DNA of 64,000 nt, from positions 2,432,001-2,496,000 of the forward strand of contig CAVUDW010000003.1 of the NCBI GenBank assembly GCA_963740355.1. Direction: 5' to 3'. Source of the stretch: an uncultured Gemmatimonadaceae bacterium (GTDB lineage Bacteria > Gemmatimonadota > Gemmatimonadetes > Gemmatimonadales > Gemmatimonadaceae). The stretch's first letter is position 1; each line of letters begins with the position of its first letter. The notes under the pieces were generated by a model that was given only the letters and a program-made list of their open reading frames with translations, was not told where the DNA came from and did no database searches. A program made the translations under genes and the position numbers. Below, piece by piece: positions 25,271 to 57,186 of the stretch.

Positions 25271-25543
25271 CCGATCAAGGGGTCAGAGATCTTGCTCGCG
25301 CAATACGTGGCATAACTCTCGCGGGAACAATGACTTACGCTCCGATCAAGGGGTCAGAGATCTTGCTCGCGCAATACGTGGCGTAACTCGCTCGGGAGCA
25401 TTGACTTACGCTCCGATCAAGGGGTCAGAGATCTTGGTCTTGTTTTATAGATCAAGGGGTCAGAGATCTTGATCGCGCAATACGTGGCGTAACTCTCGCA
25501 GGAACAATGACTTACGCTCCGATCAAGGGGTCAGAGATCTTGG
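25271..25543 (+). repeat. Family D array: 5 copies of (CC)GATCAAGGGGTCAGAGATCTTG, 71-bp period
   Basis: Copies at 25271, 25342, 25413, 25450 and 25519; the long spacers are near-identical. Confidence 0.9.
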
Positions 25544-41800: not shown

Positions 41801-42024
41801 GAGATCTCAATCAGGATCTCGAGCAGGATCTCGAGCAGGATCTTGATCAAGACCTCTGACCCCTTGATCGGAGGCTAACCCCATGGCAGCAAACGGCTTC
41901 CGCCCACTATTCGCCCGATCAAGATCTCTGACCCCTTGATCGGAGCCTAAGTCCATACCCCCCAACACCTTCCGCGCCGCATCCGCCGTACACCCACCGA
42001 CCAAGATCTCTGACCCCTTGATCG
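41801..42024 (-). repeat. Family D array (3 copies, dissimilar spacers) preceded by 12-bp tandem GATCTCGAGCAG
   Basis: Cores at ~41845, 41917 and 41999. Confidence 0.85.
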
Positions 42025-53298: not shown

Positions 53299-53631
53299 CA
53301 AAAAACCGAGCGATCAGGCCGCACATCGTAACGAGTGCTGATACATCGCTGATATATTTTCGCCTCAGCAATTCTGGCATATCAGCGAATGTGCTGTAGA
53401 CAATGCTGATGTATCAAAGGTCTGCCAAAATCGCGCAGAAATATCAGGTGCGGACGCAACAGTTTTCTTGCTGGTGATGTGTCAGGAACAACACGCGCCA
53501 CCCGCGAATTCCGGATAGCGGCCCGTGCCGTGCGCCACCTCGCTGATCATCACGCACTCCGCGGTGACTGTCGCGCCACCCGCCGAGCTTCGTCGCCACG
53601 CATCGCACCGCCGCATCGCGCGCAACGGCGA

Positions 53632-54156
53632 TCAACCGCGCAGCGTGACCTCGCACAACAGCGTCGCCGGCTGCGGCTCGCGTGTCGCATACGCCTGGAT
53701 CCGATCGATGCGAATCGGTGCCCGCACCCGAAAGCGACGCGCCGACTGCCACGCCTCGTCCGTCATCGTGCGAAAGAAGTGCACCGTGCAATGCGGCGTG
53801 AACGCGAACTTCGGGGCCGCGAATGGCAGGCCACAGGTTGCGATCCTGTCGTGCAACCAGCGCACCGAGCCATGCACCGGAAGCGGCAACATGATGATGT
53901 TCGTGGCGGGGAATCGCTCTGGCGCACCGAAGACGAAGTCCAGTGGTGCCACCGCATCGCCCACGCGAGTCAGCGCCTCGGTCAATTCCGCGACAGGCGT
54001 GCCAAGTGGCAGCGTGCCCACACCACTCGACCCGGCCAGCGTGACATGCGGCCGAAACAACGCCGCGAACTTCGGATCGAGCTTGCGCTGCAACGCCGCG
54101 ATCCGATCCGCCTCAGGCCCGAACAGGTCTGCGACGATGAAGATCCCGTCAGCCAT
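53632..54156 (-). CDS. 2H phosphoesterase (2'-5' RNA ligase superfamily)
   Basis: Two HxT motifs: PHVTL and PHCTV. Confidence 0.85.
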   Translation of the reverse strand: MADGIFIVADLFGPEADRIAALQRKLDPKFAALFRPHVTLAGSSGVGTLPLGTPVAELTEALTRVGDAVAPLDFVFGAPERFPATNIIMLPLPVHGSVRWLHDRIATCGLPFAAPKFAFTPHCTVHFFRTMTDEAWQSARRFRVRAPIRIDRIQAYATREPQPATLLCEVTLRG

Positions 54157-54165
54157 CGCGCGGGC

Positions 54166-54987
54166 TCACTGCTTCAGAAATGTGCGATCGATCCGGCTGT
54201 TCGGGTGCGCATCATGCCAGCGGCGCACCACCACGGCGCTCAGCATGCCGACGGCCGCACCGCTCACCACGTCGGACATCCAGTGTTGTCGATCACGCAC
54301 ACGACTCGCCCCGGTCAGCGCGGCCAGCGAGTACACCAACGGCGGACCCACCGTCTTCCAGCCACTCATCCCTTGCCGACGCCACTCGGCCGCCAGCGAC
54401 ACAGCCGCCGCGGCCGACAGCGCCGTGTGCCCGCTGGCGAAACTCCGCGTGCTGTCGCTGCGGAATCCGCCGAACAGATCCCAGTGCGTCGGGCTGTGAT
54501 CGGCAGTGGCGAATGGACGCGTGCGGCCTGCGATCATCTTGATGGCCGAGATGGTGACGCCGCTGAGGATCACCGACTCGGTGGTGCGCAGTCCGAGGAC
54601 CGCAGTGCCTGAGTCACCGCGCACACGTCCCAGCAGCCACGTCGCTGGCCCAATCGCGACCGAGACCTTGCTGCCCATCACATCGCCGACATCCGAGAAG
54701 TGGCGCAGGGTGGCATCGCCGCTCACGCCTGGACGTCGCGCCCAGGCATCGCCGCGCCGATCGGCGGTGGCGACGATCAGGGCCAGTGCCGCCATGCCCC
54801 CCAGCTTCACGCCATCGGTGCGGCGAAGTCCGAGTGTGGCGTAGTGATACGTCGCACCGACGGGCGCGACCGCGGCGCCAAGCGGCTGCGCCATCACGCG
54901 TGTCCCCGTCACACCGCTCAACATGGCGACCAGGCCGAATCCCGCGGTCAGTGGTCGAGCCGCCGTGCGAGCGCATCGCAGCATCAT
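54166..54987 (-). CDS. PAP2-family phosphatase
   Basis: KMIAGRTRP, SFASGH and SRVRDRQHWMSDV; ATGA overlap with the SET gene stop. Confidence 0.88.
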   Translation of the reverse strand: MMLRCARTAARPLTAGFGLVAMLSGVTGTRVMAQPLGAAVAPVGATYHYATLGLRRTDGVKLGGMAALALIVATADRRGDAWARRPGVSGDATLRHFSDVGDVMGSKVSVAIGPATWLLGRVRGDSGTAVLGLRTTESVILSGVTISAIKMIAGRTRPFATADHSPTHWDLFGGFRSDSTRSFASGHTALSAAAAVSLAAEWRRQGMSGWKTVGPPLVYSLAALTGASRVRDRQHWMSDVVSGAAVGMLSAVVVRRWHDAHPNSRIDRTFLKQ

Positions 54988-55802
54988 TTCTGGCCCTTCT
55001 TCCCCTGTGTACCGGCCTTCTTCGCGGCCCCCTTTTTCGCCCCGCCTTTCTTCGCCGCACCCTTCTTTGCGGCACCCTTCTTCGCTGACCCCTTCTCGGC
55101 GTGCTTCTTCGCGGCCTTCTTGGCAGCTTTTTTGTCCGCCTTTTTGGCCGAGTGCTTCGCGGCGTGCGCGGCTGGCAAATCGGTGTGGGTGTCTGCGTCC
55201 TGCTTCCGCGACGCTTCCTTTTCCTGCTGCTTCTCTTCGTCGCGATTCGCCTTGCCGTCCAGCTTTTCCTGCTTCGACTTCTTGTCCTTCTTGTTCTTCT
55301 TGTCCTTCTTCTTCTTGTCCTTCTTCGTCTCCTTCAGCGGCGCCATGATCGTGCCGCGACACTTCGGCGACCCGCAGCGACAGACGTACAGCTTGAGATC
55401 CGCCTCAGTGTGCTCCGGCGTCCGCTCGTAGGCGTAGTCGTAGAGCAATTCGGTGCCTTCCTCGATCGTCTTCAGCGCACCGATGAACACGCGGCCGTCT
55501 TCCTCCTCGACCGCTTCGCAATTCGGGTCGCAGGAGTGATTGATGTACTTCGCCGGCCAGTCGATCGGCCCTGCATCCAGCACTCGCGAACCATCGCCGA
55601 TCGAGAACAGGAAGGTGTGATGCCGCCCCATCTCGTCGTCCGGATACCGGATGTCGGATTCCGCCTCGTCAATGCACTCACCGAGATATTCGATGATACG
55701 TGCACCCTTTTTGATACGACGAGTGGCGAAGGCACCCTTACCTTGGATCTTGGAGGTCCGGATGGCGAAGGCGAGCTTGCGAGTTCCTGCGAAGTGAGCC
55801 AC
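54984..55802 (-). CDS. SET-domain lysine methyltransferase with post-SET and Lys/Ala-rich histone-H1-like tail
   Basis: GKGAFA, EYLGE, YINHSCDPNC, ELLYDY, CRCGSPKCRG; then ~118 aa with KKAAKK/KKGAA repeats. Confidence 0.9.
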   Translation of the reverse strand: MAHFAGTRKLAFAIRTSKIQGKGAFATRRIKKGARIIEYLGECIDEAESDIRYPDDEMGRHHTFLFSIGDGSRVLDAGPIDWPAKYINHSCDPNCEAVEEEDGRVFIGALKTIEEGTELLYDYAYERTPEHTEADLKLYVCRCGSPKCRGTIMAPLKETKKDKKKKDKKNKKDKKSKQEKLDGKANRDEEKQQEKEASRKQDADTHTDLPAAHAAKHSAKKADKKAAKKAAKKHAEKGSAKKGAAKKGAAKKGGAKKGAAKKAGTQGKKGQK

Positions 55803-56175
55803 GGATGGAAGACTGAAGTGATGACAAAAGTGCAGGCTGGAACAGCGACGATGGCGCGCTGACCGGCGTTGTCGTGGTCTGCGGCGACGTGCGGAGAATA
55901 GTCGCCTTCGCCATGTCGGTCACATGCCGGGCATATGTCCGCCAGCGGGACAGAACTACGAATTCTTGTTTGACAACCGTTTTCTCGCGCGATCCGCCGG
56001 CACCAACCGGTCCCCCAGAGCGCTTGCACCTCGTACGAGCAGCACACGCGAGCAACACACGCTTGCAACACACACGATCACGCAGCGCTACCTCGACATG
56101 CTACGTTCCTAACAGTGCCCGACTTGCGGTAAAGTCGAGCTCGTCAGCGCGACGATGCGCCCCCACGAGTCCCCC

Positions 56176-57186
56176 ATGCGTCTGTTTTCGCTCGACCCTG
56201 CCAGCCCCGATCCGGTCATCATCGCCGACGCCGCGGCACGTCTCCGCGCAGGAGAACTGGTCGCCTTCCCCACCGAGACGGTCTACGGCCTGGGCGCCAA
56301 CGCCCTCGATGCCGACGCGGTCGCCGGCATTTTCTCGGCCAAGGGACGCCCGTCGTACAACCCGGTGATCGTGCATGTGCCGCACACCGAGGCGGCGCGA
56401 CGGGTGGTGACGGAATGGCCGGACGCCGCCGCCAAGCTGGCCGCCGCCTTCTGGCCCGGACCACTCACCATGGTCCTCCCGAAGTCCCCGGATGTGCCAG
56501 ACAGCGTCTCGGCCGGCCTGCCGATGATCGGCGTTCGTGTCCCGGCGCACCCGATCGCCCTCGCGCTCCTCCGCGCCGCCGGTGTGCCGGTCGCCGCACC
56601 CAGCGCCAACAAGAGCAACCAGCTCTCCCCCACCTCCGCCGAACACGTAGCCCGCGGTCTGGCCGATGTCGAAGGCACGCTCCTCGACGGCGGCCCCTGC
56701 GAGGTGGGCATCGAAAGCACGGTGGTCGACCTCAGTACCGATCCGCCCACGCTGCTGCGCCCAGGTGGCCTCTCGGTCGCCGCCATGGAATCGGTGCTGG
56801 GCGTCAGGCTGCAGCGCCAGACCACGGTCGCCACAGGCGAGACTCCGCGCCGCTCACCCGGCGCCCTCGAACGGCATTACGCCCCGCGCGCAAAGGTGCG
56901 CATGGTCCCCGCCGCCGACGCGGTCGCCCTCGCCACCACCATAGACGCGCTCCGCGGCGACGGTGTCATCATCGGCGTGGTGGCCTACTCCGACTACGAC
57001 CTCCCCTTCCGCGAGGATGTCGTGGTCCGCCAGCTCCCAAGCCGCGCCGAACCGTACGCCAGCGTGCTCTTCGCCGCCTTGCACGAGCTGGATGACGTGG
57101 GCGTGACCGCGATCGTGGTCGAAGCGGTGCCGGATCTGCCGATCTGGGACGCCGTGCGCGACCGACTCAAGCGCGCATCGACATAA
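56176..57186 (+). CDS. tsaC: L-threonylcarbamoyladenylate synthase (Sua5 type)
   Basis: VAFPTETVYGLGA, AKGRPSYNP, AAPSAN, GIESTVVD, C-terminal SUA5 domain. Confidence 0.95.
   Translation: MRLFSLDPASPDPVIIADAAARLRAGELVAFPTETVYGLGANALDADAVAGIFSAKGRPSYNPVIVHVPHTEAARRVVTEWPDAAAKLAAAFWPGPLTMVLPKSPDVPDSVSAGLPMIGVRVPAHPIALALLRAAGVPVAAPSANKSNQLSPTSAEHVARGLADVEGTLLDGGPCEVGIESTVVDLSTDPPTLLRPGGLSVAAMESVLGVRLQRQTTVATGETPRRSPGALERHYAPRAKVRMVPAADAVALATTIDALRGDGVIIGVVAYSDYDLPFREDVVVRQLPSRAEPYASVLFAALHELDDVGVTAIVVEAVPDLPIWDAVRDRLKRAST

Follow-up and report, generated by a model that had tools for sequence, protein, structure and literature searches.

A SET-type protein methyltransferase with a lysine-rich, histone H1-like tail in an environmental Gemmatimonadaceae bacterium: a possible tether to the nucleoid

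The DNA analysed here is a stretch of 64,000 nucleotides from an uncultured Gemmatimonadaceae bacterium (the window; positions 2,432,001 to 2,496,000 of contig CAVUDW010000003.1, assembly GCA_963740355.1). It contains, on its reverse strand, a complete gene for a small SET-type methyltransferase, in which the post-SET motif is followed directly by a lysine-rich tail. The parts of this gene and the other lysine-rich proteins of the genome are located in Table 1. An earlier interpretation of the same DNA, made by a model from the letters alone (the sequence-only reading), had described the gene as a SET methyltransferase fused to a histone H1-like tail, and had proposed that the product is a self-methylating nucleoid protein and a possible chromatin-like switch.

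By its motifs and predicted fold the product is a complete SET plus post-SET protein. The Pfam SET profile (PF00856) matches residues 21-123 with an E-value of 3.1e-20 (73 bits, cut-off 22.4), covering positions 1-104 of the 105 in the profile, and a profile scan of the whole genome finds the same place. The motifs by which SET domains are defined in PMC3980110 (GxG, NHSCxPN and ELxYDY) appear as GKG, the S-adenosylmethionine (SAM) motif, at residues 21-23, NHSCDPNC at 88-95 and ELLYDY at 118-123; the post-SET sequence CRCGSPKC occupies residues 141-148. In an alignment of 134 family sequences G23, Y39, N88, H89, C91, E118, Y123, C141, C143 and C148 are invariant, and G21, P93, N94, L119, Y121 and D122 are at least 90% conserved. 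The four cysteines of post-SET domains are established to bind zinc.

AlphaFold, run on the family alignment, gave block confidence values (pLDDT) of 85-98 across most of residues 11-150, with two blocks at 75. The model matched 368 PDB entries in Foldseek at E ≤ 0.001, with MLL1 at the top (2w5z, E 2.1e-12) and MLL3/4, NSD1/2, ASH1L and SETD2 as the next-best folds. When solved structures were searched by sequence, NSD2 was the best match (3.6e-20), before MLL1, MLL3 and ASH1L, among 124 distinct PDB sequences at E ≤ 0.01. The first SET strand starts after only 11 residues, and neither a pre-SET/AWS domain nor any Pfam domain besides SET was found. The catalytic domain has a net charge of -5. 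We read the protein as a cytoplasmic, probably active SET-type protein-lysine methyltransferase. The gene as such is already known, since NCBI names its relatives "SET domain-containing protein-lysine N-methyltransferase".

The tail (residues 151-272) consists of 122 residues, 42 of them lysine (34%), with 24 Ala, 10 Gly, 9 Asp, 7 Glu and 2 Arg, and has a net charge of +28. The genome (5.45 Mb, 65% G+C) encodes about 1.9% lysine and 10.2% arginine, as estimated roughly from six-frame open frames of at least 400 residues. The tail lies far beyond chance composition, because lysine is so scarce in this genome and only seven of its open frames reach 12 lysines in 40 residues. Residues 160-169 read KKDKKKKDKK, residues 224-233 KKAAKKAAKK and residues 241-262 KKGAAKKGAAKKGGAKKGAAKK. 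In the DNA, Tandem Repeats Finder detected a 15-nt period, corresponding to the pentapeptide, which spans 55016-55096 in 5.4 copies, as well as a 12-nt period at 55114-55150 and 9- and 18-nt periods at 55263-55335.

Low-complexity, Lys/Ala-rich short tandem repeats and a strong positive charge are the hallmark of H1-like proteins, and the tail has both. Of the H1-like families (HC2, PF07382; NCBIfam NF038053, histone H1-like DNA-binding protein), the HC2 profile did not match the window protein at E ≤ 1, and an NCBIfam scan found nothing on the tail. The sole Pfam match there was BAF1_ABF1 (20.9 bits, below the cut-off of 28.9), which is compositional. A precomputed PF07382 label is attached to 3 of 120 listed relatives (P0050, P0099 and P0103). 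As far as sequence can tell, the likeness to H1 is one of composition, not of homology. The sequence-only reading was therefore right about the intact SET and post-SET motifs, the KKDKKKKDKK block and the pentapeptide repeats; its term "histone-H1-like" holds for the H1/AlgP-like composition of the tail and not for its descent.

In the AlphaFold model residues 160-202 form one long charged helix (block pLDDT 86-94), a prediction on low-complexity charged sequence that has to be read with care. The distal tail is undocked (pLDDT 44-58), and neither the histidine-containing island nor the repeats are placed on the SET domain. Prediction of a complex between residues 1-155 with SAM and zinc and the tail segment 196-240 gave a score of 0.23 (mark 0.32); it was run with no controls and counts neither way. 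The island contains the sequence LPAAHAAKH (209-217). Relatives have GH[VI]E[AQ]HAAKHA at this place, and HH.A.RH strings occur in the tails of distant Gemmatimonadaceae. A pattern of the type H..H[AGS]..[KR] was present in 27 of the 97 tails of at least 40 residues, against 3.4 expected from shuffled tails. A metal site, a docking motif or a specific acceptor lysine are possible roles of the island.

The whole genome was scanned in six frames for segments with at least 12 lysines in 40 residues. Of the seven open frames that passed, the SET protein being one, four of the six others encode DNA proteins or resemble them: HU, a SWIB-domain protein, deoxyribonuclease IV and a free-standing K/A-repeat protein. 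The last of these is H1-like, and 13 of the 15 genus genomes searched retain its locus, with a DNA identity of 78-90%. Its gene and the distal tail of the SET gene share 70-73% DNA similarity over 101-150 nt. We considered an origin of the tail by fusion with the H1-like gene and rejected it, as similarity of this degree is indistinguishable from convergence of AAG/GCC repeats. HU with a tail was found in 18 of the 19 genus genomes and in one other genus; the HU proteins of two other families end near residue 95-100. The joint occurrence of tailed HU and tailed SET protein gives weak, non-independent support to a link between them, because the genomes are close kin.

Table 1. Parts of the SET gene (window positions) and other lysine-rich proteins of the source genome (genome coordinates, in whose labels the source genome is G000; locus labels in brackets)
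Feature	Position	Strand	Evidence or remarks
Complete coding sequence, SET methyltransferase with basic tail	54984..55802	-	GTG start at 55802, TGA stop 54984-54986; 272 aa
SET catalytic core, residues 12-125	55428..55769	-	Pfam, invariant columns, AlphaFold pLDDT mostly 85-98, Foldseek
Post-SET zinc motif, residues 139-150 (YVCRCGSPKCRG)	55353..55388	-	C141, C143, C148 with C91; aligns with NSD2 post-SET
Proximal tail, residues 151-202	55197..55352	-	TIMAPLK linker, then K/D/E/Q-rich block with KKDKKKKDKK; AlphaFold, tandem periods
Histidine-containing island (ADTHTDLPAAHAAKH), residues 203-217	55152..55196	-	Sole sequence-conserved part of the tail
Distal tail, residues 217-272	54987..55154	-	KKAAKK and KKGAA pentapeptide repeats; predicted disordered; H1/AlgP-like portion
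Free-standing K/A-repeat H1-like protein, 109 aa	C2:765754-766080 (L013:454-780)		
HU with K/A-rich C-terminal tail	C2:591891-592262 (L015:487-858)		Bac_DNA_binding 1.3e-27
SWIB-domain protein with K/A N-terminus	C3:2419335-2419859 (L017)		SWIB 7e-31
Deoxyribonuclease IV (endonuclease IV), K-rich N-terminal extension	C2:1244976-1246187 (L016)		TIGR00587, 256 bits, cut-off 130
Acidic protein with PAKK repeats, no family	C2:107955-109355 (L014)		
ROK-type kinase with K-rich C-terminus	C2:1051718-1052683 (L018)		

Conservation of the tail was examined in close relatives. A word-index protein search scored 7999 candidates, of which 3473 reached E ≤ 0.001, and 119 homologues were listed besides the window protein. 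All 119 have the post-SET motif followed by a basic tail, 12 to 175 residues long. Lysine is commoner than arginine in 113 of the listed tails; in the remaining 6 it is the other way round. Even between proteins whose SET domains share about 90% identity, the tails differ freely in length and in sequence; P0038, which is 94% identical over the aligned part, has a tail of 50 residues. Selection acts on the composition of the tail, not on its sequence.

A SET match was found in 31 of 41 related genomes: in 19/19 of the genus and 24/24 of the family (source genome excluded), and in 1/8 and 5/8 of two other families of the order. The tailed gene is present in all 19 genus genomes. Conservation among orthologues, which had been set beforehand as the point on which the sequence-only reading could fail, was thus found wherever it was looked for in the genus and in the listed homologues. 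The names attached to the homologues place the gene in Gemmatimonadaceae and Gemmatimonadota, and by their record titles the genomes are from environmental metagenomes, which agrees with the sequence-only reading, where no sign of host association had been seen in the window.

Most genus genomes carry a second SET gene, whose product of about 156 residues ends a few residues past the post-SET motif. In the source genome this tail-less paralogue (C3:1348760-1349212; L019:986-1450, +) has 155 residues, is about 50% identical to the tailed enzyme and ends in a four-residue basic stub, so that the genome itself provides a natural "minus tail" comparison. In P0096 (365 residues) two SET plus post-SET units are apparently joined in tandem. 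Stops that fall inside tblastn matches are chance read-through. No lysine-rich mini-ORF was present in the 450 nt past the SET stop, either at locus L007 or at nine loci from other genera and paralogues.

Basic extensions are not confined to this clade. A HMMER scan with residues 1-160 against 1.84 billion cluster representatives gave 10050 matches at E ≤ 0.001, of which the best 150 were examined. A post-SET motif was recognisable in 135 of these 150, and 73 of the 135 have a basic tail of at least 8 residues, in which lysine prevails in 42, arginine in 26 and neither in 5. In several representatives (e.g. P0134, P0164, P0196 and P0198) a lysine-rich N-terminal extension stands in for a very short C-terminus. 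We also inspected 80 loci of more distant relatives from named genomes, 40 from Gemmatimonadota and 40 from other groups (Corallococcus, Myxococcus, Massilia, Noviherbaspirillum, Oxalicibacterium, Steroidobacteraceae, Burkholderiales, Anaerolineae, Dehalococcoidia and Ignavibacteria). By our own thresholds, 67 of the 80 proteins have a basic C-terminal extension, 5 an N-terminal one only and 8 neither. What the wider family keeps is positive charge at one end of the protein, not lysine as such. By these comparisons the tail of the genus appears as an enlarged form of a general basic extension of small prokaryotic SET proteins. An electrostatic anchor fits the family better than an obligatory methyl acceptor, because arginine often replaces lysine and the basic stretch may be N-terminal.

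We favour, with moderate confidence, an explanation in which the tail, as an enlarged basic post-SET extension, tethers the enzyme to nucleoid DNA beside its lysine-rich substrates. The polycationic tail would bind a polyanion by charge, most likely chromosomal DNA, and would keep the acidic catalytic domain at the nucleoid, where it would methylate lysines of DNA-bound, lysine-rich proteins, for which the K/A-tailed HU, the free-standing H1-like protein and perhaps the SWIB protein with its K/A N-terminus are candidates. If these are substrates, bystander methylation of the enzyme's own tail is likely as well, because the tail carries the same AAKK-type contexts; it would not be the reason why the tail exists. 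We infer DNA binding, substrates and enzyme activity alike.

The nearest parallel to such a tether comes from eukaryotes. NSD1-3, SETD2 and ASH1L also have a basic stretch straight after the post-SET motif, and phmmer extends its alignment beyond the SET domain as far as the basic region of NSD2, pairing residues 152-190 with the K/R-rich segment that follows its post-SET. The corresponding C-terminal extension of NSD2 is described as needed for efficient nucleosome methylation and as expected to make ionic contacts with DNA (PMC8593083). In NSD2 the basic extension comprises about 18 residues, here 122 with tandem pentapeptide repeats. The NSD enzymes also have AWS/pre-SET, PWWP and PHD domains, which are absent from the window protein, and their substrate is the nucleosome, which cannot be the substrate here (the genome was not searched for histone-fold proteins). 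In fold the closest enzymes are those of the MLL/SET1 (KMT2) group (MLL1, 2w5z: TM about 0.65-0.75 on the target, 33-35% identity over about 150 residues). Like theirs, the core is minimal, with SET-N, SET-I, SET-C and post-SET and no pre-SET. The MLL enzymes end at the post-SET motif and depend on WRAD partner proteins.

Among prokaryotic enzymes, cpnSET of Chlamydophila pneumoniae and NUE of C. trachomatis are, by description, likewise small SET plus post-SET proteins tied to lysine-rich H1-like nucleoid proteins; the partners of cpnSET are Hc1 and Hc2, both of which it binds and the first of which it methylates (PMC3980110). Hc1 and Hc2 are separate gene products, whereas here an H1-like tail of 122 residues lies inside the enzyme. 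The Chlamydiae are obligate intracellular bacteria and NUE is a secreted type III effector, whereas the present lineage is environmental and the gene stands among housekeeping genes. Go1-SET of Methanosarcina mazei resembles the window protein as a small prokaryotic SET protein of a free-living organism, although it is archaeal, and is reported to methylate the endogenous DNA-associated protein MC1-alpha (PMC3980110).

The tail itself resembles those of mycobacterial HupB and HbhA, Mycobacterium smegmatis Ku (PAKKA repeats), actinobacterial TopA and Pseudomonas AlgP, in each of which a low-complexity K/A(/P)-rich tail is carried by a folded domain; in none of them is that domain a lysine methyltransferase. 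The lysine-repeat tails of mycobacterial Ku and actinobacterial TopA, and the tail of HupB, have been described as DNA-binding. In HbhA at least 13 of the 16 C-terminal lysines are reported to be methylated, and the K-rich tail of HupB is likewise given as a methyl acceptor (PMC8467707).

Several observations weigh against a tether to DNA. In the close clade lysine prevails over arginine in 113 of 119 tails though arginine is about five times commoner in the genome, so lysine itself may matter; this bias is, however, common to the genome's other K-tailed proteins, and to H1-type tails generally. Other genera of the Gemmatimonadaceae have SET proteins with short basic tails only, and no tailed HU was detected in those genera by the HU query used. 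It is mainly in a single genus that a tailed HU accompanies the long SET tail. The order of the genes around the SET gene gives no hint of chromatin. The K-tailed ROK-type kinase has its best match, far below threshold, in polyphosphate-glucose phosphotransferase (39 bits, cut-off 250), and the H1-like tail of AlgP is described as binding polyphosphate granules (PMC9239181).

The sequence-only reading had put enzyme and substrate into one chain. On that account the tail is a nucleoid-coating H1-like protein whose lysines are methylated by the SET domain in cis or in trans; as a chromatin-like mark, the methyl groups would adjust DNA affinity, compaction or stability against proteolysis. The preference for lysine in a genome of about 10% arginine and 2% lysine speaks for it, as do the AAKK contexts that the tail has in common with the free-standing H1-like protein and the HU tail, and the DNA similarity to the H1-like gene noted above. 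The over-represented HAAKH island could serve as a specific acceptor or pseudosubstrate site. There are precedents too: NUE of Chlamydia is reported to automethylate (PMC3980110), and a link between the methyl-lysines in the K-rich tail of HbhA and its resistance to proteolysis has been reported (Pethe et al. 2002, cited in PMC8467707). We nevertheless regard it as unlikely. SET enzymes are not known to methylate arginine, and 26 of the 73 basic tails of the wider family are dominated by it. Some tails comprise only 7-12 residues, and some of the basic stretches are N-terminal. The AlphaFold model docks neither the island nor the repeats on the SET domain. The lysine bias is not specific to the enzyme's own tail, because every K-tailed protein of the genome shows it, and the enzyme need not be its own substrate, because separate candidates, the tailed HU and the H1-like protein, share its K/A repeats. 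An extended version, in which the SET domain of an automethylating H1-like nucleoid protein marks the HAAKH island and the AAKK repeats, spreads the modification in trans to the HU tail and the H1-like protein and tunes DNA compaction, seems to us just as doubtful. Of the proposed self-methylating switch, the intact enzyme and the conserved basic tail are confirmed; charge rather than lysine as the conserved property of the family, the undocked distal tail and the separate candidate substrates count against the rest.

A tail of this charge might also hold the enzyme on another polyanion, on polyphosphate granules or on RNA and ribosomes, and the substrates would then be granule-associated proteins or ribosomal and translation proteins. 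Gemmatimonas was first isolated as a polyphosphate accumulator, and eukaryotic SET enzymes also methylate ribosomal proteins. The K-tailed kinase with its sub-threshold match to polyphosphate-glucose phosphotransferase would suit such a role, and in the genus the neighbours of the SET gene are RNA-related, with a 2H/LigT-type phosphoesterase downstream and Sua5 (tRNA t6A) upstream. AlgP, as an H1-like protein that localises to polyphosphate granules, provides a model (PMC9239181). Most of the other K-tailed proteins are, however, DNA proteins (HU, SWIB, endonuclease IV), the linkage with PAP2, LigT and Sua5 is restricted to the genus, and in the sources consulted DNA-bound proteins are the targets both of the NSD enzymes and in the two prokaryotic cases with a characterised endogenous substrate (Hc1 and MC1-alpha). 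We rate another polyanion slightly below the one-chain arrangement, as rather improbable. Less probable still is a secreted effector directed against protists, fungi or plants. The tail would then serve for nuclear localisation or cell entry, and the enzyme would act on host histones in the manner of NUE, RomA/LegAS4, BtSET and BaSET. Most bacterial SET proteins studied experimentally are nuclear effectors, according to PMC3980110, where a nuclear signal is seen in the basic KHRKKR near the C-terminus of NUE. A sheath gene of type VI secretion is present in the genome (VipB, 449 bits; G000:C2:1563494-1564396), and the sole NCBIfam match of the window protein is to the Legionella AnkI/LegAS4 model NF043024. 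That match reaches 33.4 bits against a cut-off of 550 and involves the SET domain only, and the type VI gene lies on a different contig from the SET gene. VirB4 was not found (the genome is 94.5% complete, and type III secretion was not searched). The SET gene has been kept vertically at one chromosomal place beside housekeeping genes and is present in all 19 genus genomes, and its family is widespread in free-living soil and sediment lineages. On inspection, no hydrophobic segment resembling a signal is apparent at the N-terminus, and a tail of 122 residues far exceeds the length of a nuclear signal.

Work on bacterial SET proteins has dealt almost exclusively with effectors that pathogens inject to rewrite host chromatin; what such enzymes do in free-living bacteria has long been an open question, which PMC3980110 raises. 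The present analysis bears on it: a basic extension is near-universal in the small-SET family across phyla, and one soil and sediment genus has enlarged it to an H1-like tail. Together with the tailed HU, SWIB and H1-like proteins of the genus, the family-wide extension suggests that these enzymes act on lysine-rich nucleoid proteins bound to a polyanion. The parallel with NSD suggests that reaching DNA-bound substrates through a basic extension may predate nucleosomes. If nucleoid proteins are indeed methylated, regulation resembling that of histone tails would extend to ordinary bacteria; if the extended version of the one-chain account held, with automethylation that spreads in trans, it would represent a genuine endogenous chromatin-mark system in free-living bacteria. 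A literature search, with most subscription journals outside it, turned up no earlier account of either an H1-like tail on a SET enzyme or the basic extension across the family, and a preprint on Asgard chromatin contained nothing bearing on bacterial SET tails.

The gene that follows the SET gene encodes a PAP2-family phosphatase of about 270 residues (PAP2, 6.8e-22). The TGA of the SET gene overlaps the first ATG of the PAP2 gene (ATGA, 54982-54987), which suggests co-transcription and translational coupling. The 398-residue open frame listed at 54166..55362 is the PAP2 gene over-extended upstream through a stop-free alternate frame of the lysine repeats. A 2H/LigT-type phosphoesterase (1.4e-15) begins 9 nt past PAP2, and divergent genes for Sua5 and FabI lie upstream. 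Of 11 loci examined in relatives, 9 have PAP2 and LigT after the SET gene, while two break off at the end of their contigs; Sua5 lies within 1.5 kb of the SET gene in 6 of the 11. None of the 80 distant loci has the PAP2/LigT/Sua5 link within 1.5 kb; being confined to the genus, the gene order was left out of the argument on function. A promoter scan of 53400-56300 detected no promoter-like site, and the number of terminator-like sites (3, with 1.9 expected) was uninformative. No RNA sequencing run is listed for 54700-56100; the six runs that match it, with small shares of 0.07-0.27, are of DNA or of unknown type.

A chromatin-like switch, as the sequence-only reading had it, might be accompanied by erasers and readers of the mark. 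JmjC and chromo profiles had no match in the genome, and they had none in 14 control genomes either, so that the blank is weak. One weak match to Cupin_8, a JmjC-related family, was recorded (36.8 bits; G000:C3:1422796-1423299), about 74 kb from the tail-less SET paralogue.

The locus of the H1-like gene is accompanied by a dispersed repeat. Just downstream of the gene (L013:860-965) lies an element of about 30-100 nt with a GATC-flanked core. The H1-like locus used as query gave 68 matches in the source genome, many of them to this repeat, and further ones in other genus genomes. Copies are also present within the window, at 25412-25468 and 41995-42023; in appearance the repeat is similar to repetitive extragenic palindromic (REP) elements or to miniature inverted-repeat transposable elements (MITEs).

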